A DNA stretch of 64,000 nt from an uncultured Dehalococcoidia bacterium (GTDB taxonomy: Bacteria > Chloroflexota > Dehalococcoidia > SM23-28-2 > RBG-16-64-32), in the NCBI GenBank assembly GCA_964649215.1, contig CAZYOV010000002.1:2288-66287 (forward strand). Reading direction: 5' to 3'. Below the pieces are notes generated by a model. It was not told the DNA's origin. It did not search any database and saw only the letters and a program-made list of their open reading frames with translations. Shown here piece by piece: positions 2,545 to 37,677 of the stretch (within the stretch, counting starts at the first letter, position 1; each line of letters begins with the position of its first letter). The position numbers and the translations under genes were made by a program.

Positions 2545-2887
2545 CTACAACCTCCCTCTGGGCTTACAAAATGCAGATAGCCCTCTGCCGCCGCAGGCGG
2601 GGGATGCGGAGCCGGCTGGTTGACAGAGTCGCACGAAGGGGCGAATTACTGAGCCGGGTTTCGATAGCACGCACCCCCATTTCATTTAGCGGTCAACCAC
2701 TGTGCGGTCGTGTAGTAACATAAGGAGAACCGTTTGTCAAACCCAGGCGCACAATCGCGGCGGCAGCCTAGTCTCCCTGTCGCCACATCACTTCGAACAG
2801 CCGCACCCCCATCCTAGTGTTACCATCTCAAACTGGCCTAAATTCATGTGTGCTAGACTAGCGGCACTAGACATAAGGAGGTTCACG

Positions 2888-3682
2888 ATGAATTTAGTGA
2901 CAGGAGCGGCTGTAGCATTCGCACTGGTGGTGGCTGCCGTGGTTGGCGGCGTGGTCTGGCAGCAGACGCGGGCCTCGGCGGTGCCGCTGCCCGACCCAGC
3001 GGAAGTTCGCATCACTCCGGCCACCATCAACATCCCAGAAGGCGCAACGGATACCGTTGAGTTGGGGGTGTTCGGGCTGGACGCCGATCAGAACCCGGAT
3101 GAGGGGTTCGACTTTGTGGTGAGCTACGACCCGGCCATCGTCGACGCTACCGGTTGTACCTTTGAGATATTGCCTGGCTCTTGTAACGCGACGTTCGAGA
3201 ACAACAACCTCGATCCCGACAAGGTACGGTCATCCGGATTTGGCGGTCCCCTCGGGACGGGTGACCTAACCCTGGCCGCCTTTGAGTTCCAGGCCTTGGT
3301 CGGCCAGGCGGGCAACTGCACCACTCTCACGGTGTCCCTGCACTTTCTCGGGATCTTCCCAATGGAAGATATTCCCCACGACACAGTAAACGGCCAGATC
3401 TGTGTCACGGCCGGGCCTCCCACGCCCAGCCCAACTCTTACCGGAGAACGGGGGTCGGCGGTGTTGACTGAGGTGATCAAGACGGACAAGGAGAACGCCA
3501 TCACTGGGTTCGTGACCTTCTCTCAGCTGCAGCCAGACACGGACTACACGGTAGTATTTGTGAGCACTGACGTACTGTGTCGAGGCCAGATGGTCACAGA
3601 CAAGACCACAGGCGGCTTTCGCGCCATCTGCGGTGGTGGCAATTTCAAGAGCGTTACTATCGACTGGCTCGTGATTCGCTAG
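2888..3682 (+). CDS. membrane-anchored cohesin-like domain protein
   Basis: ATG at 2888 preceded by AGGAGG at 2875-2880; the ORF track starts further upstream at 2702. N-terminal TM helix (AAVAFALVVAAVVGGVVW). Cohesin-like segments GFDFVVSYDPAIVDA and GDLTLAAFEFQALVGQAG. Confidence 0.5.
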   Translation: MNLVTGAAVAFALVVAAVVGGVVWQQTRASAVPLPDPAEVRITPATINIPEGATDTVELGVFGLDADQNPDEGFDFVVSYDPAIVDATGCTFEILPGSCNATFENNNLDPDKVRSSGFGGPLGTGDLTLAAFEFQALVGQAGNCTTLTVSLHFLGIFPMEDIPHDTVNGQICVTAGPPTPSPTLTGERGSAVLTEVIKTDKENAITGFVTFSQLQPDTDYTVVFVSTDVLCRGQMVTDKTTGGFRAICGGGNFKSVTIDWLVIR

Positions 3683-3782: not shown

Positions 3783-4340
3783 ATGCGCCGATGGTTCTCC
3801 AATCTCGCCTCGCAATTCTCTGCGTTTCCCCGCTGGTTATTGGTTCCAGCCTTCTTTCTCGGATGGCTCGCGGGGAGCTTTGGCGTAAGTTTCGCCACCG
3901 TTGAATGGCGGGCACCGGATGAAGCTCTAGTGCAAGACATACAGCAGCAGGTTGACGAGTTAGCCCTAGAGGTCGCGAAGGGGAAGCCTGGGCCTCCTGG
4001 ACCCGAAGGCCCACTAGGCCCAGATGGACCATCAGGACCAAGGGGACTCGTGGGGGAACCGGGGCCAGCAGGGCCTCCAGGACCAGCGGGGCCCCCAGGG
4101 CCGCAGGGGACACCGGGTACCGTTACGAACATCGATCAGTTCGTTCAAAAGGACATCCTGAGCCTAAAATCGACTCTAGACTTGGACGACCTTCAGAACT
4201 GCCTTAATGATCTCCAACGAGCCATTGACAAAATAGACCGGGCGCTACAGGACATAGACTTCGCTCTAAGCTTCGACAGTTTCTACATCGCACCAAGTAT
4301 ATTTACCCCGTTCAGCTGTGGTTCTGTCTCAGGCTTCTAG
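3783..4340 (+). CDS. collagen-like triple-helix repeat protein with N-terminal TM anchor
   Basis: 185 aa. TM segment ([18 protein letters not shown]), then about 25 uninterrupted G-X-Y triplets ([46 protein letters not shown]), then a C-terminal non-collagen domain. Confidence 0.65.
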
Positions 4341-4576
4341 CGGGCCGGGGCTGGTTGGGAGGAGCCTGGGGAGTATCGGAGCCTGCGAGCGACGCACGAC
4401 TAACCGCATCGGCTAGAAGGGCATGAGGCCAGCTACCCGCTCGGCATCTAGAATGACGGCTTCATCAGAAAAAAGGGCAGTAAATTCGCCGTCGCTAGGA
4501 GCACCCTAGCCGGGAGCCCAGGGCTCAGTCGTACGCATGAACACTAATCTGCCTTAGTGCTAGCCAAACATCTGGC

Positions 4577-5191
4577 CTATTTGATAGCCAGCGCGCACAA
4601 CGCACGCGGCCTGGTTCGCCTCATCTCCAGGTGGGCCTCTCGGAAGCCGGCCTGCGTCAACATCCCCACGATCTCCTCGCCGGTGTACAGCGCGTAGTAG
4701 TGGTCGGTAAAGCGCCAGCGTCCCAGCTCCTCTTTGGGCGACACCGTTATCGCGATCAGGCCACCCGGCTTCAGCACCCGCCGCAGCTCTTGCAGAACCG
4801 CGTCCGGCTCCGGCCAGAAGTAAATACCCTGGATCGCGCACGCCTTATCGAACCAGCTATCTTCGTATGGCAGATCCCGGGCTTCTCCCCACCGTAGTTC
4901 CGTCCGCCCCTCTCTGATCGCCGACGCGTTTTTTATCCGCGCCTGCTCGACCATCGTCTCAGAGTGATCGATTCCTGCGACGAACCCCGATGAAGCGAGC
5001 TGCGACATCCGTCTGATTGCCACCCCACTCCCGAAACCGACCTCCAGAACACGATCCTGGGGCCGTATATTCATCAATCGGGTAGTCCAGATGTTGATCG
5101 GACGGTTCACAAGCGCCATCCCGCGGCCCACCAACCTGCCCAACAGCCCCCTCGGTCGGCGCAGCTGTGAACCCATCATCCTCGAGATCAA
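4577..5191 (-). CDS. class I SAM-dependent methyltransferase
   Basis: Motif I VLEVGFGSGV and post-I LKPGGLIAITV; 204 aa. Confidence 0.7.
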   Translation of the reverse strand: MISRMMGSQLRRPRGLLGRLVGRGMALVNRPINIWTTRLMNIRPQDRVLEVGFGSGVAIRRMSQLASSGFVAGIDHSETMVEQARIKNASAIREGRTELRWGEARDLPYEDSWFDKACAIQGIYFWPEPDAVLQELRRVLKPGGLIAITVSPKEELGRWRFTDHYYALYTGEEIVGMLTQAGFREAHLEMRRTRPRALCALAIK

Positions 5192-6179: not shown

Positions 6180-7556
6180 GTGAACACTGACTACGAAACG
6201 CTGACGGATCGGGAGCTCGCCGTGGCGGCGCGAGGGGGCGACCAGCGGGGGCTGGCGACGCTGTACGACCGCTACTTCCTGGGCCTGTACGACTTCGCCA
6301 TCCGCACTCTGCGCGACACCGACGCGGCGGCGGACGTCGTCCGGAAAACGTTCACGGAGGCGTCGCGGCAACTGGGCGAGGGGACGGTCCCGGAGAGCGT
6401 GAAGGCGTGGCTCTATGGCACCGCCCTCAGAGAGGCCACCACTGGGACGCGGCAGACCCCACCGCAGGAGGGCGGGCGTCGGCAACAGGCCGGGGCGCTC
6501 CCCTCGTTCGTCGAGATCGATTCGGCCCGCGCGCCTGACCCTCAGGCGCTCCAACGAGACGGGGATCTGAGGGAGCTTGTCTGGCAGTCCGCGACCGAGC
6601 TCAGCCCCAGGGAGTACGCTCTCCTCGACCTTCGGCACCGGCGCGAGCTGACCACCGCCGAACTGGCGGCGGCCGTGGGGATCGGCGGAGACACCGCCGA
6701 TGCCACCATCTCCGCGGTCAGCGACACACTGGAGCAGGCGGTGGTGACGGCGCTGCTCGTGCGACGGGGACGCCGTGACTGCCCCGAGCTGGCCGCGCTC
6801 CTGGATCGGACCTCCACCCCGGAGGTGCGACAGGCCGTCCTGGCGCACGCGCAGGAGTGCCCGCGCTGCCAGAGGACCCCAGCCGACTACCCATCGGCGC
6901 TCCAGATCCTGGCCGCCTTCGCGGCGGTGCCGGCGGCAGCCGGCCTGAAGGAGGTGATCTGGCTGGCCGTAGTGAGTACCGGGGCGCCAGCAGAGCCCGT
7001 TGCCGCCGCTCCTGCCGGGCGCGGGAGGCCGCTGCTCATAGCACTGCTCGCCGGGCTTGTGGCCCTAGCGATCGCCGTGGCCCTGATCCTCCTGCTCGAC
7101 TCCGGCGGCGACGATGGGCTGGGCAACCCGGACGACATCCGAAGCACCAGCCACGGGATCGGTGAGCCGTCGAGCGAAACGGTCGTGAGCTTGGTGTGGT
7201 CTCGGCAGGAGGGGGTCCTCGCCTACTCCGTGTCGTGGAGCGGCGACCGGTTCGAGCTTCCCGACGAGGTCGGCGACCTTTCCGGCGACGCAACGGACGC
7301 GATGAGCCCTCAGCTCACGCCCGGGGAGTGGTACTTCCACCTGCGGACCCAGCACGAGGATGGGACATGGACCAACACGGTCCACGTCGGGCCGTTCCAG
7401 ATCGTGGCCGAGGCAACCCCTACGGCCGAGCCTACGGCCGAGCCGACGCCCTCGCCGAGCCCGCAGCCGACACCCTCGCCGACCCCGGAGCCGAGCCCGA
7501 GCCCCACGCCGGAACCCACGCCCTCGCCGACGCCTGAGCCCACACCCACACCCTGA
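6180..7556 (+). CDS. ECF-type sigma factor fused to anti-sigma (zf-HC2-like), TM helix, extracytoplasmic domain and Pro/Thr-rich tail
   Basis: Sigma-70 region 2 (GDQRGLATLYDRYFLGLYDFAIRTLRDTDAAADVV) and region 4 HTH (LSPREYALLDLRHRRELTTAELAAAV). Cys pairs CPELAALL..HAQECPRCQ. TM segment LLIALLAGLVALAIAVALILLL. C-terminal PT-repeat tail (EPTPSPSPQPTPSPTPEPSP..). GTG start. Confidence 0.6.
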   Translation: MNTDYETLTDRELAVAARGGDQRGLATLYDRYFLGLYDFAIRTLRDTDAAADVVRKTFTEASRQLGEGTVPESVKAWLYGTALREATTGTRQTPPQEGGRRQQAGALPSFVEIDSARAPDPQALQRDGDLRELVWQSATELSPREYALLDLRHRRELTTAELAAAVGIGGDTADATISAVSDTLEQAVVTALLVRRGRRDCPELAALLDRTSTPEVRQAVLAHAQECPRCQRTPADYPSALQILAAFAAVPAAAGLKEVIWLAVVSTGAPAEPVAAAPAGRGRPLLIALLAGLVALAIAVALILLLDSGGDDGLGNPDDIRSTSHGIGEPSSETVVSLVWSRQEGVLAYSVSWSGDRFELPDEVGDLSGDATDAMSPQLTPGEWYFHLRTQHEDGTWTNTVHVGPFQIVAEATPTAEPTAEPTPSPSPQPTPSPTPEPSPSPTPEPTPSPTPEPTPTP

Positions 7557-7709
7557 GTGGCGCCAGGAGCTGTTCGCGGGCCTCATCACCCTCTGAGTAT
7601 GGGCGTGCGGCCCGCACTGTAGGCACGTAGGGGATTATTGTCAACAAGGAGGATTGCGTAGTGGGAGGGCGGCTGCGTGTCGCTGCTTGCCTCTGCCGCC
7701 ACCACTGGC

Positions 7710-7750
7710 CCGTTGACACCCGCCCACCCCAAGCGCACAATCGCGGCGGC
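7710..7750 (+). repeat. motif-1 copy C: TTGACA(7713-7718)-N17-CACAAT(7736-7741)
   Basis: ccgttgacacccgcccaccccaagcgcacaatcgcggcggcgggcagtg. Confidence 0.6.
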
Positions 7751-8030
7751 GGGCAGTGAGGTCGCCCCTCCTCAATGGTACCCCCTTGGGCAGCGCGGCT
7801 TTGCTGTCCGCCCGTCACTTGGCTGCTGTAACATCCCATCGTCAGTCGGTGTTTTACATAGTGGCGGAGGCACCACCACCAGGTGATGGTGCAGCGTTCC
7901 TCAACTGACGCGGGGGGTACGTGGTGCCTCTTCCCAAAGACACCCGTGGCACGACGGTGCCAGGCAGCCGAGACACTCACCAAGACACACCCATATCGGA
8001 CTTGAGCCGCGCTCCTCGCTACCCTGAGCG

Positions 8031-14308: not shown

Positions 14309-14382
14309 TGCGGGATTGTGTAATGGTAGCACGGCTGATTCTGGATCAGTTAGTCTAGGTTCGAATCCTAGTCCCGCAGCCA
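14309..14382 (+). tRNA. tRNA-Gln (anticodon CTG)
   Basis: 74 nt with cloverleaf. Acceptor TGCGGGA/TCCCGCA. Anticodon stem GCTGA/TCAGT with loop TTCTGGA. T-arm CTAGG-TTCGAAT-CCTAG. Ends in CCA. Confidence 0.8.
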
Positions 14383-14387
14383 AGCGT

Positions 14388-14464
14388 GGCGCATTCGTCT
14401 AGTGGCCCAGGACACCGCCCTCTCAAGGCGGAGATCACGGGTTCGAATCCCGTATGCGCCACCA
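14388..14464 (+). tRNA. tRNA-Glu (anticodon CTC)
   Basis: Acceptor GGCGCAT/ATGCGCC. Anticodon stem CCGCC/GGCGG with loop CTCTCAA. T-arm ACGGG-TTCGAAT-CCCGT. CCA end. Very similar overall to canonical bacterial tRNA-Glu. Confidence 0.8.
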
Positions 14465-32529: not shown

Positions 32530-33153
32530 ATGTACATTCAGGCTTTGTCAGGACTAATGGATAAACCCCGGGATCTGCCGGCAGGCACAAAGGCCGCCAG
32601 CACCCCCAGCGACCACTTGCGGGAGTGGGAGCTGGTGCAACGTGCTCAGGCGCTGGACGATGTCGCCCTGGCCTCCCTCTACTCCACCTACTACCCAAAG
32701 ATTTACAACTACGCATTCCTGCAGTTGGGCGATATCCATGGGGCGGAGGATCTGGCCTCCGATGTCATGCTCAAGCTACTGGAGTCCATTAAGAAGTACC
32801 AGTTCAAGGGCACACCGTTCTCCGCCTGGGTGTTCCGAATCGCCCGCAACAGGCTGATCGATCTGCACCGCCGCCGTAAGCGGCGCGGCGAGGTCAACCT
32901 GACTGAGCCGCTGGTCGCCATGCAGATCGGGCCTCAGACTTTGGCCGAGCGGGCTCTCGATCGGGGGCAGCTCCAACTCGCCCTGAGGTACCTCACGGAC
33001 GAGCAGAGGCAGGTGATCGTCCTCAAATTCATCGAAGGATTCGACAACGCTGCTGTGGCCCGCGTCCTTGGCCGCAGTGAGGGCGCTATCAAGTCGCTAC
33101 AGCACCGGGCGCTGAACTCGCTTCGACGCGTCATGTCGGGGGAGTCTCGCTGA
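32530..33153 (+). CDS. ECF (sigma-24 type) RNA polymerase sigma factor
   Basis: Region 2 (..YNYAFLQLGDIHGAEDLASDV..FSAWVFRIARN) and region 4 (LTDEQRQVIVLKFIEGFDNAAVARVLGRSEGAIKSLQHRA). Confidence 0.75.
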   Translation: MYIQALSGLMDKPRDLPAGTKAASTPSDHLREWELVQRAQALDDVALASLYSTYYPKIYNYAFLQLGDIHGAEDLASDVMLKLLESIKKYQFKGTPFSAWVFRIARNRLIDLHRRRKRRGEVNLTEPLVAMQIGPQTLAERALDRGQLQLALRYLTDEQRQVIVLKFIEGFDNAAVARVLGRSEGAIKSLQHRALNSLRRVMSGESR

Positions 33154-34970
33154 TGGCGCGGGGATTCTCCGCTGCCCTGGACGAATGCTTGGCCGCCATG
33201 AGCGTGGGCGAGAGCCTGGAGGAGTGCCTGGCCCGCTATCCGCAGTATGCGGAAGAGTTGCGGACACACCTGCCGCTGGCACAGCGGCTGACCATGACGC
33301 CACGGCACGAGCCGCGGGCCGGTGTCCAGGAGGCAGCCTGGCAGCGCTTCCGCTCACGGGTGGAGGATATGCGCCTCGGGCGGAGGCCGCCGCTTTCATT
33401 CGCCTGGCTGCGTCCGCTGACGATCGCGGCCCTCTTGGTGCTGGCCATCGTGGGCGCTGCGGGCGGCACCGCATACGCATCGCAGGACGTTCTTCCCGAT
33501 AGTCCCCTCTATCGAGTCAAGCTGTTCACGGAGGATGCGCGGGTGTGGTTCACCTTCGACGATAGTCGGAAGGCGGAGTTGCTGCTCAACCAGTCCAACG
33601 AGCGCACGGACGAGGTCATGGCGATGCTGCGCGCCGGGAAGCCGATTCCGGGAAACGTCCTCAGCGCCCTCCGAGAGCGTAACGCACGGGCCGTGCGCAT
33701 CTTGGAGGACCACCCCGATGAGCTGGCCTTGCTGGCACGCGCACGCGAACAGTCGGCTGAGCAGGAGGACCTGTTGCTGGTGTTGTGGGGAGACCTCGCG
33801 GAGTCCGCACAGGACGACTACGCCGAGGTCGTAGCCACTCTTCACAACGTCCAACTGCGGACCAGTGGCACGCCGGGCTCCGTTAGGCCCGACGATCTCG
33901 CCGCTGGGGTCATCCACATAAGCGGATCGGCCGAGCTGGCGGCAGAGGGCGTGTGGCTGTTGGGCGGCGTTGAGGTCAGGATTGATCTTCGCACGCGAGG
34001 GGACAACGAGCTTGAGCCGGGTCAGATGGTCAGAGTTGTCGCCGCTAGGGGAAGCGATGGACGGCTACTCGCGCTTGAGGTTACGGCTGTCAGTGATGGA
34101 CTGCCCGATCAGCAGTACATCGTCTCCGGCACCTTGGAAGACGTGGGCGATGGCGAAGTGGTTATCGCTGGCCAGCGGATCGCCATCACCGCGAGGACTC
34201 TGCTCAAGCTCCGGCTGCAGCGGGGCCAGCGGGTGGAGATAAGAGTCGATGACATCGACGGGCAGGCCGTCGCTTCCAGCGTGGAGGGATCTGCGGGTGA
34301 TGTGGATGAGGCGGCATCCGCTCTTCTGGCCTACGAGGGAATCATTGAGGGCGCGGTCAGGACTGATGAAGTCAGCAACGATTTGGTGGTAGGCGGTCAG
34401 CAGTTCACCGTTACACCCAGCACCGAGATCGACGCCCGAGGCGGGGTGCTGGCAGAAGGCGCCCGCGCCCGCGTGGAGGCGGTAGTCGAAGACGGGGACG
34501 TGATCGCCAAGAGGGTGGTGATCCTGGCCGATGCGGACGGCGCGGACGAGGACATCGTCCGGATTGAAGGGGTGCTGGAAGCGGGGGACGATGAGAGCTG
34601 GACTGTCAGCGGCATAGAGGTAGTCGCTCCTGCCGAGGCGGAAACCCCGGAAGTCGGTAGCCTTGTCACCCTTGAAGGACGCCTGATAGACGAGCATCTC
34701 GTTCTGGAGAAGCTCGTCACCACCTTCACGCCCGGTCGCAGTGGGCTGGCGCTCATTCGCGGCACCATCAGGCGAATAGAAGAGAGCGGCGCCTGGCAGA
34801 TCGGCCTCCTCCGAGTCGAGATACCAGATGAGGCGGTTGTGCTTGGAGCGCCTCAGGAGGGGAGCCGGGTGTTCATCTGGGGAAGCCGTGACGACGAGGG
34901 TTCCTTGCAGGCTGTTTACGTCAACATCCTAAACCGGACGCCGGAGGTTCCACCGGCCTCGGAGGACTAA
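33153..34970 (+). CDS. anti-sigma-factor-like membrane protein with DUF5667-like N-domain and repeated DUF5666-like beta domains
   Basis: Start overlaps the sigma gene stop. N-terminal LDECLAAMSVGESLEECLARYPQYAEEL. One TM helix (LTIAALLVLAIVGAAGG). C-terminal repeats of the pattern G.LE.V.DGE.V.I.G..I.. Confidence 0.6.
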   Translation: MARGFSAALDECLAAMSVGESLEECLARYPQYAEELRTHLPLAQRLTMTPRHEPRAGVQEAAWQRFRSRVEDMRLGRRPPLSFAWLRPLTIAALLVLAIVGAAGGTAYASQDVLPDSPLYRVKLFTEDARVWFTFDDSRKAELLLNQSNERTDEVMAMLRAGKPIPGNVLSALRERNARAVRILEDHPDELALLARAREQSAEQEDLLLVLWGDLAESAQDDYAEVVATLHNVQLRTSGTPGSVRPDDLAAGVIHISGSAELAAEGVWLLGGVEVRIDLRTRGDNELEPGQMVRVVAARGSDGRLLALEVTAVSDGLPDQQYIVSGTLEDVGDGEVVIAGQRIAITARTLLKLRLQRGQRVEIRVDDIDGQAVASSVEGSAGDVDEAASALLAYEGIIEGAVRTDEVSNDLVVGGQQFTVTPSTEIDARGGVLAEGARARVEAVVEDGDVIAKRVVILADADGADEDIVRIEGVLEAGDDESWTVSGIEVVAPAEAETPEVGSLVTLEGRLIDEHLVLEKLVTTFTPGRSGLALIRGTIRRIEESGAWQIGLLRVEIPDEAVVLGAPQEGSRVFIWGSRDDEGSLQAVYVNILNRTPEVPPASED

Positions 34971-35053
34971 GAAGCTCAATCCTATCCGTCGGCTGACCGG
35001 CACTCGGCAGCATGCCACATCGTATTGACAAACGGTAGGCGGCTGCGTATGGT

Positions 35054-35071
35054 ATAGCGAGCGCTCGCTAT
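35054..35071. promoter_or_regulatory. perfect 18-bp palindromic operator ATAGCGAGCGCTCGCTAT upstream of tetR
   Basis: 18 bp before the TetR ATG. Confidence 0.6.
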
Positions 35072-35088
35072 GGCGCGCGGGAGCCAGT

Positions 35089-35757
35089 ATGCCGAAGCTG
35101 AAGCCGGAGGAGATCGAGAACCGAAGGCGGGAGATAGTCGTAGCCGCCCGCGCTTGTTTCCTGCGCAACGGCTTCCACCAGACCACCACAGATGAGATCT
35201 GCCACGAGGCGGCGATCACGCCCGGCGGCCTCTATCATTACTTCGGCAGCAAGGAAGAGATCATAAGCGCCGTTATCGAGGATACGACGCAGGCCACAGT
35301 TGCTGACCTGACGTCAACGGCCGAAGCGTCCGGGGACATGCGCTCCGCCGTTGAGGCCCTGTCTTCGCTCTTCTTCGAGTGGGCACGCAATCCCGAGATT
35401 GATAACATGACGCGGCTGAACGTGGAGATCTGGGCCGAAACGTTGCGAAATGAGAAGCTGGCCGAGATCACGCGGGGAAGCCGGTCCATGCGGCGCGAGT
35501 GGCTGGAATCTCTAATCCGGAAAGCGAAATCTGAGGGCGTATACGCGGAGCAGGTTGACCCCAGAGGACTGGCCGATCTTATCATGGCGATCTTCGACGG
35601 ATTACGCCTGGGTAGATTGCTGTGGAAGGACGACTTCGACGTGGAGGGTGCTCTCCAGTCGCTGCTCCTGATGCAGACCGGCCGTCTCACCGACGGAGCA
35701 AATGTCACCGTAGACCAGGAAGAGGCACGCTCAGCCGGACGCGCTAGAGCGCGCTAA
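35089..35757 (+). CDS. TetR/AcrR family transcriptional regulator
   Basis: N-terminal HTH RREIVVAARACFLRNGFHQTTTDEICHEAAITPGGLYHYFGSKEEI. Confidence 0.8.
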   Translation: MPKLKPEEIENRRREIVVAARACFLRNGFHQTTTDEICHEAAITPGGLYHYFGSKEEIISAVIEDTTQATVADLTSTAEASGDMRSAVEALSSLFFEWARNPEIDNMTRLNVEIWAETLRNEKLAEITRGSRSMRREWLESLIRKAKSEGVYAEQVDPRGLADLIMAIFDGLRLGRLLWKDDFDVEGALQSLLLMQTGRLTDGANVTVDQEEARSAGRARAR

Positions 35758-36068
35758 CGAACGAGAAAGGGGTCGCCCAGGCCGTCAGCTAACTCCCTCC
35801 CTTTGGGCGATGACGGCCCGGGCGCCGATATTGAGGCCGCCGTGGGATCACCCCCGGCGGCCTCTCACGTCTCGGGGGCAAGGCTGAGCGGGGGAGAGCA
35901 GCAACCCCTTATTCAAGACGCCGAAGTTGGAACCAGCCGCGGCCGGCAGGCAGGCCAAAACGAACGGCAGCGAGATGAACACCGGACGATTTAGGCCGGC
36001 CGAGGCTGGAAGCTGTTTGCCTGTTCTCGAAATCATTTCATCTATATCATGCAATTGAAATCATGAGT

Positions 36069-36096
36069 ATTGTAGGGTATGGACGGCGGCAGTCAA
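36069..36096 (-). promoter_or_regulatory. strong sigma70-type promoter on the minus strand: TTGACT (rc of 36091-36096) -N16- TACAAT (rc of 36069-36074)
   Basis: Sits in a low-GC intergenic patch, immediately adjacent to three operator-like sites. Confidence 0.45.
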
Positions 36097-36125
36097 GAGG
36101 TTTGAGGGGAAAAGCAAGCATTATA

Positions 36126-36186
36126 TAGCGAGCGCTCGTTATACTGAGCGAGCGCTCGTTATACCAAGAAAGCGCTCGCTATCGCT
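36126..36186. promoter_or_regulatory. three tandem operator-like sites (atagcgagcgctcgttat / gagcgagcgctcgttata / aagcgctcgctatcgc) related to the tetR palindrome
   Basis: Direct inspection; the sites lie 3' of gltX on the minus-strand side. Confidence 0.55.
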
Positions 36187-36189
36187 ACT

Positions 36190-37677
36190 CTACGCCGGTG
36201 ACTCCGCTTGAAGCCGCCGCAGCGCCGACTCCAGCCGCTCCAGGCTGCGTTCGCGGCCCAGGACGGCCATCGTTTCGAATAGCGGCGGCGCCGCTGTCCT
36301 GCCGGTCACCGCTACTCGGATGAGGCCAAACAGCTCGCCGGTTTTCATCCCCAATTCCTCGGCCTGAGGACGGATGGCACCCTCCAGCGCCTCGTGCTGC
36401 CAGTGTTCGAGACGGCTGATACGCTGTACGACTGCCTGCAGAGCCGTCGCGGCTACGGCGGGCGCGCCGGCCAGCTTCTTTCCCAGCAAGGTCTTCGTAT
36501 CGTATTCAAGCTCTCCTTCCCGGAAGAAGAAGTCAGCCATCTCCACGGTTTCGGTCAGCAGTTTGACGCGCTCACGGATAAGAGGGATGACAGGTTGTAG
36601 CAGGTTACGATCTATCGTCCGGCCGAGGTTCTTCTCCAAGAAGGGGGCCGTGCGCTCCGCCAGCTCCTCTTCGGGCAGGTCGCGGATGTAGACGCCGTTC
36701 ATCCAGGCCAGCTTATCGAAGTTGAACACCGCGGGGCTGGCCAACACGCGGTCCAGGCTGAAGTGGCGGACGAACGTCTCGCGGTCGATGATCTCCGTGT
36801 GGTCGTCGAGAGACCAGCCGAGAAGGCCGAGGAAGTTGAACAGCGCCTCCGGTAGGAAGCCGCGGTCGCGGAAGGCCAGGACGGAGGTATCGCCGTGGCG
36901 TTTGGAGAGCTTGGCCTTGTCGGGGCCCAAGATCATGGGCAGATGCGCGAAGGTGGGCAGCTCCCAGCCGAAAGCCTGGTAGAGGAGGACGTGCCGGGGA
37001 GTGCTGGAGAGCCACTCATCGCCGCGAAGGACGTGTGTGATCTCCATCAGGTTGTCGTCCACGATGTTGGCGAGGTGGTACACGGGAAACCCATCCGACT
37101 TCAGTAGCACGAAGTCGTCCAGGGTATCGTTTTCGAACACGATGTCGCCCCGGACGAGGTCGTTGAAGGCGGTCTGGCCGGTGAGGGGTGTCCTGAAGCG
37201 GACGACGCAGGGCAGCGCCTGGGATTCCAGCTTTTCGCGTTCGGTTCCCGGGAGGTCACGACAGTTACGGTCGTACTTGGGCGGGAGCTTGCGGCGCTGC
37301 AGGTCCTTGCGCACGTCAGCCAGACGCTCCGGCGTGCAGTAGCAGCGGTAGGCGTGGCCGGCCTCGATTAGCTGAGTGGCGTAGCGGTTGTACGTCTCCA
37401 CTCGGCGGGACTGCATGTACGGCCCGTAATCGCCGATGTCGCGGCTAGGGTCGGCGGGGTCCGGCCCCTCGTCGTAGTCCAGACCGAGCCAGGCCAGCGA
37501 GTCGAAGATCGCCTGCTCTGAGCCCTCGACGTAGCGGGCGCGGTCGGTGTCTTCCAGGCGAACGATGAAGGCGCCACCCTCGTGACGGGCGAACAGCCAG
37601 TTGAAGAGGGCGGCACGGATGTTGCCGACGTGGGGCACGCCGGTGGGGGAGGGGGCGTAGCGGACGCGGACGGCCAT
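36190..37677 (-). CDS. gltX: glutamate--tRNA ligase
   Basis: HIGH motif (PSPTGVPHVGNIRAALFNW) and KMSKS (KLSKRHG). The likely start is MAVRVRY at 37677; the ORF track extends to 37890. Confidence 0.85.
   Translation of the reverse strand: MAVRVRYAPSPTGVPHVGNIRAALFNWLFARHEGGAFIVRLEDTDRARYVEGSEQAIFDSLAWLGLDYDEGPDPADPSRDIGDYGPYMQSRRVETYNRYATQLIEAGHAYRCYCTPERLADVRKDLQRRKLPPKYDRNCRDLPGTEREKLESQALPCVVRFRTPLTGQTAFNDLVRGDIVFENDTLDDFVLLKSDGFPVYHLANIVDDNLMEITHVLRGDEWLSSTPRHVLLYQAFGWELPTFAHLPMILGPDKAKLSKRHGDTSVLAFRDRGFLPEALFNFLGLLGWSLDDHTEIIDRETFVRHFSLDRVLASPAVFNFDKLAWMNGVYIRDLPEEELAERTAPFLEKNLGRTIDRNLLQPVIPLIRERVKLLTETVEMADFFFREGELEYDTKTLLGKKLAGAPAVAATALQAVVQRISRLEHWQHEALEGAIRPQAEELGMKTGELFGLIRVAVTGRTAAPPLFETMAVLGRERSLERLESALRRLQAESPA

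Follow-up and report, generated by a model that had tools for sequence, protein, structure and literature searches.

We analyzed a stretch of 64,000 nucleotides (nt) from an uncultured Dehalococcoidia bacterium (contig CAZYOV010000002.1, positions 2,288 to 66,287 of the forward strand), which we call the window and whose first letter is position 1 of all coordinates used here. The subject is a gene for a TetR-type regulator (tetR), the 18-bp palindrome at its start, and the gap between tetR and the gltX gene. This gap holds three further palindrome-like sites, a minus-strand promoter (P2), and a convergent segment that we predict to encode a structured noncoding RNA (ncRNA) of about 300 nt. 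A small open reading frame (ORF) lies within this segment. The features, in order of position and with bounds on the minus strand given from high to low where they follow the RNA, are as follows.

35025 to 35053, plus strand: tetR promoter from a promoter scan, TTGACA-N17-TATGGT.
35054 to 35071, no strand: predicted autoregulatory TetR operator, a perfect 18-bp palindrome (ATAGCGAGCGCTCGCTAT) located on the predicted tetR transcription start or directly after it.
35089 to 35757, plus strand: tetR, encoding a 222-amino-acid TetR/AcrR-family regulator of an orphan subfamily.
About 36062 to 35758, minus strand: predicted RNA of about 300 nt, from comparison, folding, and a covariance model.
35974 to 36062, minus strand: clade-specific form of the RNA's 5' domain, with a 5' hairpin (36060 to 36036) and the 5' strand of a 15-bp helix (36009 to 35995).
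35947 to 35933, minus strand: 3' strand of the 15-bp helix, pairing with 36009 to 35995.
35831 to 35973, minus strand: conserved core of the RNA, with a variable hairpin, a three-way junction, and a hairpin named HP3.
35922 to 35916, minus strand: GGCGTCT in the conserved core, part of the junction-closing helix GCGUCU/AGACGC.
35861 to 35837, minus strand: HP3 in the conserved core, GCCGCCG..CACGGCGGC.
35758 to 35824, minus strand: 3' end of the RNA, with a terminator stem (35824 to 35774) and a U-rich tail to 35758 that abuts the tetR stop codon.
35848 to 36054, minus strand: candidate ORF inside the RNA, 68 amino acids from a TTG or 62 from the ATG at 36036.
36069 to 36096, minus strand: RNA promoter P2, TTGACT (36096 to 36091)-N16-TACAAT (36074 to 36069), with a predicted start near 36062.
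36097 to 36124, minus strand: spacer that separates site 1 from the -35 box (..ATAATnCTTGCATTTC....CAAACCTC), strongly conserved in a logo of 57 distinct sequences.
36125 to 36142, 36145 to 36162, and 36165 to 36182, no strand: three sites resembling the TetR operator, repeated exactly every 20 bp.

The product of tetR is a member of the TetR/AcrR family. It has an N-terminal TetR-type helix-turn-helix (PF00440, TetR_N; residues 16 to 62, E = 1.9e-15) and an all-alpha C-terminal ligand-binding and dimerization domain (PF13977, TetR_C_6, E = 3.3e-11, plus PF17940). The protein aligns full length to TetR-family structures in the PDB, the nearest being the remote UidR-like entries 6ayh and 6ayi (E ~1e-15), and no NCBIfam model scored above its cutoff. 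The perfect palindrome that an earlier note on this DNA had placed before tetR was found without a mismatch. It lies directly 3' of the plus-strand promoter and ends 17 nt before the tetR ATG at 35089. In 59 distinct relatives, a TTGACA-N17-TATAAT-like promoter precedes the operator, which always lies 0 to 10 nt past the -10 box; its core, CGAGCGCTCGCT, is invariant among the loci. In nearly all relatives, the palindrome reads ATA[G/C]CGAGCGCTCGCTAT and is located 32 to 50 nt ahead of the tetR ATG. Because the operator sits on the tetR transcription start, which is the standard geometry, autorepression of tetR is implied. TetR is predicted to bind this conserved 18-bp palindrome, and a ligand would release it.

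The three sites beyond the 3' end of tetR resemble the palindrome with one, three, and four mismatches in order of position (36125 to 36142, 36145 to 36162, and 36165 to 36182, respectively). At up to three mismatches, the window contains three matches to the palindrome, compared with 0.07 expected from shuffled sequences. The earlier note was right about the existence of three tandem sites, although its coordinates were 1 bp too high (the true array runs from 36125 to 36182). The near-consensus minus-strand promoter that it had described was recovered by a promoter scan at 36096 to 36069, and 1.6 kb of sequence held two promoter-like sites against 0.4 expected. In 57 distinct upstream regions, the TTGAC of P2 is invariant and is followed 17 nt away by a -10 box resembling tcTAAT. 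In nearly all loci, the site 1 core begins exactly 41 nt ahead of the -35 box and the sites are spaced by 20 bp, and about 100 bp from site 2 to the -35 box is nearly invariant. Relative to the predicted P2 start at 36062, the site centers fall at approximately -72.5, -92.5, and -112.5. The conserved spacer between site 1 and the -35 box may be UP-element-like. A conserved hexamer, [T/G]ATAAT (36125 to 36120), abuts site 1 and lies mostly inside this spacer; it may serve as the -10 box of a second promoter (P1), whose transcripts would start near 36113. We considered whether the spacer hides a cryptic fourth site and rejected this, as comparison with the logo by eye gave only about 5 of 18 consensus matches.

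More than 500 homologues of the window TetR were found in metagenome-assembled genomes (MAGs) of Dehalococcoidia/Chloroflexota. A TetR-based scan with one genome per species yielded 33 loci (loci are identified here by L numbers), and the same layout was present in 28 of 32 TetR-sampled genome loci, at TetR identities from 96% down to 49%. The further sites number one to four in nearly all of these loci and lie 360 to 485 nt past the tetR stop codon. Searching metagenome contigs with a pattern for the RNA only returned 66 loci, about 54 of which are real by covariance model; the remaining ones are longer chance matches that the covariance model did not hit. Almost all of the real metagenome loci with flanks have an operator array upstream and a convergent tetR downstream, and about 50 metagenome loci show the layout. 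In total, approximately 80 Dehalococcoidia/Chloroflexota loci share the operator array, the promoter, the RNA segment, and tetR. A convergent tetR lay downstream of the RNA in 71 of 75 loci, and the RNA lay beyond tetR in 73 of 77. The minus-strand stretch beyond tetR can be aligned in all clades (A to D, the window belonging to clade A) and comprises TTGAC, the -10 box, about 300 nt, and a terminator at the tetR stop codon. Within it, the blocks GGCGTCT, GCCGCACCCC, and GCCGCCGTG..CACGGCGG are invariant and are separated by indel-rich stretches. The earlier note had stated that an absence of the operator-like sites from orthologous loci would refute its proposal; the sites instead recur across the approximately 80 loci. 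Its proposal of a small convergent transcript, and not a divergent efflux gene, as the target of TetR is strongly supported by the joint conservation of array, promoter, and transcript region with tetR at fixed spacing.

A few loci depart from this layout. L011 (3815 to 4519), L012 (5954 to 6690), L029, and L032 carry TetR paralogues or orthologues of 45 to 64% identity, and the perfect palindrome lies ahead of at least the L011 and L012 genes. Within the flanks fetched for these four loci, neither the RNA nor additional sites were found. One MAG, JADFKX01, contains three such TetR loci (L004, L017, and L011). In L037 (219 to 536, plus strand) and L051 (2010 to 2321, plus strand), an ORF of about 100 amino acids that resembles a winged-helix protein (MTAIQNQWHLSSSHGTVLF...) replaces the convergent tetR. 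It is located downstream of a clade A RNA on the same strand, and the operator sites are kept in L051.

Distant members of the RNA, folded singly, share a 3' architecture of a variable hairpin, a three-way junction, a hairpin, and a terminator. The three-way junction contains two G/C hairpins, the first of which has the invariant loop GCCGCA (GCCGCACCCC). It is followed by a hairpin of 10 to 13 bp (GCCGCCGUG..CACGGCGGC) with the loop UGGGCUC in most clades. The terminator stem of the window has 14 bp around a large internal loop with GGGAGGG. In other clades, this position is occupied by a canonical GC hairpin followed by a T-run that ends at the convergent tetR stop codon. A covariance model of the core (R1; 147 positions and 35 pairs) gave exactly one strong match per locus, at 56 to 126 bits. 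In the 64-kb window, its single match (35831 to 35973, minus strand) scored 74.2 bits (E = 5e-13). The window RNA has a predicted folding energy of -141.6 kcal/mol (z = -4.44).

Covariation was measured in an alignment of 57 distinct sequences (A5) against slid-helix and shuffle controls. Standard pairs were formed in 88.6% of the A5 cells, compared with 45 to 61% in the slid controls; A5 was fitted to the model, and the percentage is thereby inflated. Both sides had changed in 21 of the 35 pairs (9 to 12 in the slid controls), the covariation score was 0.275 (at most 0.096 in the slid controls), and none of 500 shuffles reached the observed values. Independent of the alignment are GC-to-AU exchanges at the base of the conserved hairpin (19 to 27 sequences each) and those at all eight pairs of the variable hairpin. 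G-U pairs are frequent on the minus strand and would be A-C mismatches if read on the other strand; together with the terminator tail, they identify the minus strand as the transcribed one. The 5' domain of clade A was examined in a separate MAFFT alignment (A6) that was fitted to no structure, although the structure tested on it was derived from the same sequences. Here, the 5' hairpin and the 15-bp helix were 94.2% paired, compared with 24 to 49% in slid controls, and seven pairs had changed on both sides. The segment thus has a secondary structure with compensatory changes. It also has the apparent makings of an independent ncRNA gene, namely, its own predicted promoter, a Rho-independent terminator, and no downstream ORF on its strand.

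Some further details of the RNA concern single clades. The 23-nt loop of the clade A terminator stem (35774 to 35824 in the window) contains CAAAGGGAGGG, and in the other clades, an GGGAGGGG motif is found in the 5' domain instead, so that a conserved purine motif occurs at a shifted position. In clades C and D (L020 to L031), the 5' end of the RNA (approximately nt 10 to 20) pairs with approximately nt 95 to 110, as in L021 (GGAGCGCAU ... AUGCGCUCGCC). Both strands of this pairing resemble the TetR operator core GAGCGCTCGC, which may be a coincidence or a further DNA site. Kissing between the loops of the junction hairpins and the loop of HP3 was rejected on inspection, since only 3 to 4 bp are possible and these are not kept in clade A.

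The RNA belongs to no known family and is absent from Rfam 15. Searches of Rfam 15 gave nothing relevant in 34900 to 36300 at E values up to 10 and nothing at E values up to 1 in five diverse loci; in the whole 64-kb window, only two tRNAs passed the gathering threshold. ARAGORN likewise reported only tRNA-Gln and tRNA-Glu, elsewhere in the window. In literature searches, we found neither a TetR-ncRNA module for Chloroflexi or Dehalococcoidia nor this RNA.

We interpret the locus, with a probability of roughly 0.7, as a conserved cassette in which an autoregulated TetR sensor is paired with a convergent, intrinsically terminated, structured ncRNA of about 300 nt in uncultivated Chloroflexota (MAGs labeled Dehalococcoidia). 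Several points weigh against this interpretation. The window copy of the RNA is the weakest and most divergent member of clade A, with 74 bits compared with 88 to 107 for most others. The otherwise invariant loop GCCGCACCCC reads GCTGCTCTCC in the window (35902 to 35893, minus strand), and the second junction hairpin lacks the GGGG of its 5' strand (35875 to 35892), as it does in L001 and L095. The window copy may therefore be decaying or under relaxed constraint, or the assembly may contain an error. Four RNA loci have no adjacent tetR, and four tetR loci have no RNA. Finally, we infer the transcription start, the RNA ends, and TetR binding from the sequence.

The candidate ORF offers a different account of the same nucleotides, in which the transcript encodes a protein of about 45 to 70 amino acids and the conserved positions reflect that protein, perhaps as a dual-function RNA with mRNA structure. 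The earlier note had proposed either a 62-amino-acid peptide or a small RNA. The minus-strand ORF exists where it had been seen, and an ORF starts from near the 5' end of the RNA in every sequence. In clade A, every sequence has at least one in-frame ATG near the start, and only a single 3-nt indel occurs over 145 nt. Two observations speak for translation and against a purely noncoding transcript: in clades B to D, most sequences have no stop codon in the GCC-GCA-CCC (AAP) frame before a conserved U[AG]AGACG is reached, and synonymous differences in clade A amount to 26% in the ORF frame, compared with 15% and 12% in the other frames. This synonymous excess leaves a small probability that an ORF is translated on top of the structure. 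Against coding, stop-free runs as long as the ORF arise in 27 to 83% of dinucleotide shuffles, and the separations between GGCGTCT, GCCGCACCCC, and GCCGCCGTG fall into all residue classes modulo 3, so the frame differs by clade. Accordingly, GGCGTC would encode G-V in some clades and R-R in others, and GCCGCACCC would encode A-A-P in some and P-H-P in others. In clade A, the three codon positions are about equally variable (29, 29, and 28 variable sites of 41). Of 16 clade A sequences, 4, including that of the window, have lost the first ATG, and no Shine-Dalgarno sequence was seen before the ORF on direct inspection. Conservation in close relatives, which the earlier note had suggested as a check, did not hold either: the window, L001, and L002, with more than 93% identical TetR proteins, are mutually frameshifted in the C-terminal third of the ORF.

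The features that had made the ORF look like a gene also have another source. The LPASAG and CLPAAAG codons are the two strands of the covarying 15-bp helix, and this explains the hydrophobic core and GC3-rich codons that the earlier note had pointed out. Peptides of different clades show no similarity past short nucleotide-encoded stretches, the ORF has no Pfam match, and gene callers annotate nothing in the corresponding gap of L100 and L102. We found no conserved start codon with a ribosome-binding site, no conserved frame, and no codon-position bias of the kind expected for a small ORF or small membrane protein. An apparent Shine-Dalgarno sequence with AUG in clades C and D (GGGAGGGG..AUGCGCUCGCC) was rejected as a translation start; it actually pairs with GAGCGCAU at the 5' end, forming the 3' strand of a long-range helix, and the peptides downstream of it have inconsistent lengths (12 to 64 amino acids). 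The candidate ORF is most likely noncoding, and a protein product as the reason for the conservation is unlikely. Of the two options in the earlier note, the small RNA is favored, as a structured ncRNA of about 300 nt with covariation, and the peptide is not supported, as a frame of chance length that shifts between clades and lacks codon periodicity.

The array could instead mainly serve a neighboring protein gene, either a divergent sortase gene or, in the window, gltX as a terminator or roadblock, with the RNA-like segment being incidental. In clades A and B, including the window, gltX ends next to the array, which begins 8 nt past the gltX stop codon (at 36190 in the window), and the gene order with rluD-like and lspA genes is preserved. 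The loci of clades C and D lack gltX, which argues against a general role at this gene; in 9 of 10 of them, the far side of the array is followed by a sortase gene (PF04203) that points away from the array. The distance from the array to the sortase gene varies from about 80 to 250 nt, however, and the intervening stretch is unconserved and has its own TATAAT boxes, whereas array and RNA promoter are separated by exactly the same number of nucleotides in every clade, whether or not a sortase gene is present. The constant partner of the array is therefore the RNA promoter. Since the site hairpins are also weak as terminators, we regard a main role in serving a neighboring gene as improbable, even more so than a coding transcript. 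The repeats and the downstream conservation could also be chance or repeat-element features without a dedicated function; only four sites are present in the window, and GC-rich palindromes are found here in a GC-rich genome. Three matches where 0.07 are expected, the recurrence of the arrangement in about 80 loci down to 49% TetR identity, the covarying helices, and a single copy per locus without dispersal all contradict this. The probability of such an explanation is negligible.

Under the cassette interpretation, TetR dimers would occupy the sites of the array cooperatively, all on one DNA face, and would determine how fast the RNA is transcribed. A putative small-molecule ligand would release TetR, and the expression of tetR and of the RNA would then change together. 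TetR could repress the RNA by occluding the UP-like element or by blocking P1, whose -10 box abuts site 1 so that site 1 would form the promoter spacer. Repression of the RNA that is relieved by the ligand is more likely than not, favored by the consensus quality of P2 and by the general behavior of the family. TetR-family proteins are mostly repressors. The sites lie upstream of the -35 box and not on it, however, and do not by themselves indicate simple promoter occlusion. A position upstream of a near-consensus promoter is unusual for a repressor, and promoters under activation are not usually this strong to begin with. The strict helical phasing of the sites fits both repression and activation.

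TetR might also be a dual-function regulator that represses its own promoter and acts as a class I-type activator at the RNA promoter. The Vibrio LuxR protein, which is of the TetR type, represses from promoter-overlapping sites, activates from upstream sites, and directly activates the qrr small RNA genes (PMC2680268, PMC2628434, PMC3705450). The three site centers upstream of the RNA promoter share one face of the helix, and their distance from it is strictly fixed; the tetR operator, by contrast, lies on the tetR start. P2, with its invariant consensus -35 box and good -10 box, is unlike an activator-dependent promoter. If the [T/G]ATAAT hexamer is a -10 box, site 1 has the geometry of repression, and the window TetR is not close to LuxR/HapR. 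Together with the prevalence of repressors in the family, these points make dual function of the LuxR/HapR type at qrr less likely than repression here, although more plausible than a coding transcript or a role in serving a neighboring gene. Predicted duplexes between the RNA and the tetR translation start were no better than those of shuffled sequences (z from -1.6 to +1.7), and no common site was found.

The predicted cassette shares features with several known systems. Like classical TetR repressors (TetR/tetO, QacR/IR1, and UidR-like TetR-family regulators), the window TetR combines an N-terminal helix-turn-helix with an all-alpha ligand domain, an 18-bp perfect palindrome lies over its own start, and several phased sites are present, as for regulators that bind as paired dimers. 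Unlike in those systems, no divergently transcribed efflux or enzyme gene is present as a target; the second set of sites is located about 1.07 kb away, beyond tetR on its 3' side, where it precedes the -35 box of a convergent RNA gene, and the protein belongs to an orphan subfamily. LuxR/HapR and the Qrr RNAs of Vibrio provide a TetR-type protein that represses its own gene and has sites upstream of a small RNA promoter (PMC2680268, PMC2628434, PMC3705450), features that are predicted here from sequence alone. The qrr genes use sigma-54 and LuxO, whereas P2 is sigma-70-like; Qrr RNAs are about 100 nt long and Hfq dependent, whereas the present RNA is about 300 nt long and highly structured; and qrr genes are not adjacent to luxR, whereas here the two genes form a fixed convergent cassette. 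Neither sigma-54 dependence nor pairing with the mRNA of the regulator, both of which mark the Qrr system, was detected. LuxR has no known ligand, and the window TetR keeps a ligand-type C-terminal domain.

As an RNA, the segment resembles the large orphan ncRNAs (raiA motif, OLE, ROOL, and HEARO; PMC2864571, PMC11109978) of the Weinberg/Breaker type in being intergenic and several hundred nucleotides long, with multiple helices, invariant loops, covariation, no function assigned so far, and restriction to a lineage. It differs from them in being genetically locked to a dedicated transcription factor with flanking operators. With the 6C RNA, it shares a GC-rich host, short G/C stems, and conserved loops. 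In the present RNA, however, the C-runs are paired with G-runs in stems and the invariant loop is GCCGCA, and the Rfam 6C model gave no match.

We consider it an even bet that the segment founds a new structured ncRNA class whose members are about 300 nt long, occur only in uncultivated Chloroflexota, and are gated by a dedicated small-molecule-sensing TetR through a phased array. If so, it would be a transcription factor-ncRNA cassette without a described counterpart. The RNA could regulate in trans, bind a protein, or do something else; its three-way junction and invariant loops suggest a role more elaborate than simple antisense pairing, for example, in protein sequestration, ligand binding, or catalysis. 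The TetR family is the largest family of one-component small-molecule sensors, and its targets are almost always neighboring protein genes. A TetR with a structured RNA partner throughout a class-level lineage would add a new type of output to the family and an orphan ncRNA class to a phylum with almost no experimentally studied RNAs. Since regulator, operators, promoter, and RNA fit into about 1.2 kb, the cassette is open to direct study in a heterologous host and might be used to express RNAs under ligand control. The locus also illustrates how GC-rich RNA helices can mimic a hydrophobic, GC3-rich small ORF.

The sortase genes of clades C and D were located, all on the plus strand of their loci, at 7103 to 7906 (L020), 1280 to 2083 (L021), 7163 to 7915 (L022), 7181 to 7957 (L023), 4207 to 5001 (L024), 2579 to 3361 (L026), 7238 to 7975 (L028), 7186 to 7989 (L030), and 7060 to 7773 (L031). 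On the other side of the cassette, the arrangement is not that of a classical divergent TetR-target pair, as the upstream neighbors are co-directional with tetR. Directly upstream of tetR in the window are a gene for an extracytoplasmic function (ECF) sigma factor (32530 to 33153, plus strand) and a gene for a 605-amino-acid DUF5667/DUF5666 protein (33153 to 34970, plus strand), which is taken to be anti-sigma-like; such a pair was also found near tetR in L100. A tRNA-Gln(CTG)/tRNA-Glu(CTC) pair (14309 to 14464, plus strand) lies about 20 kb from gltX in the window, and in L014 (228 to 381) and L026 (430 to 585, minus strand), two tRNAs are located just upstream of tetR.

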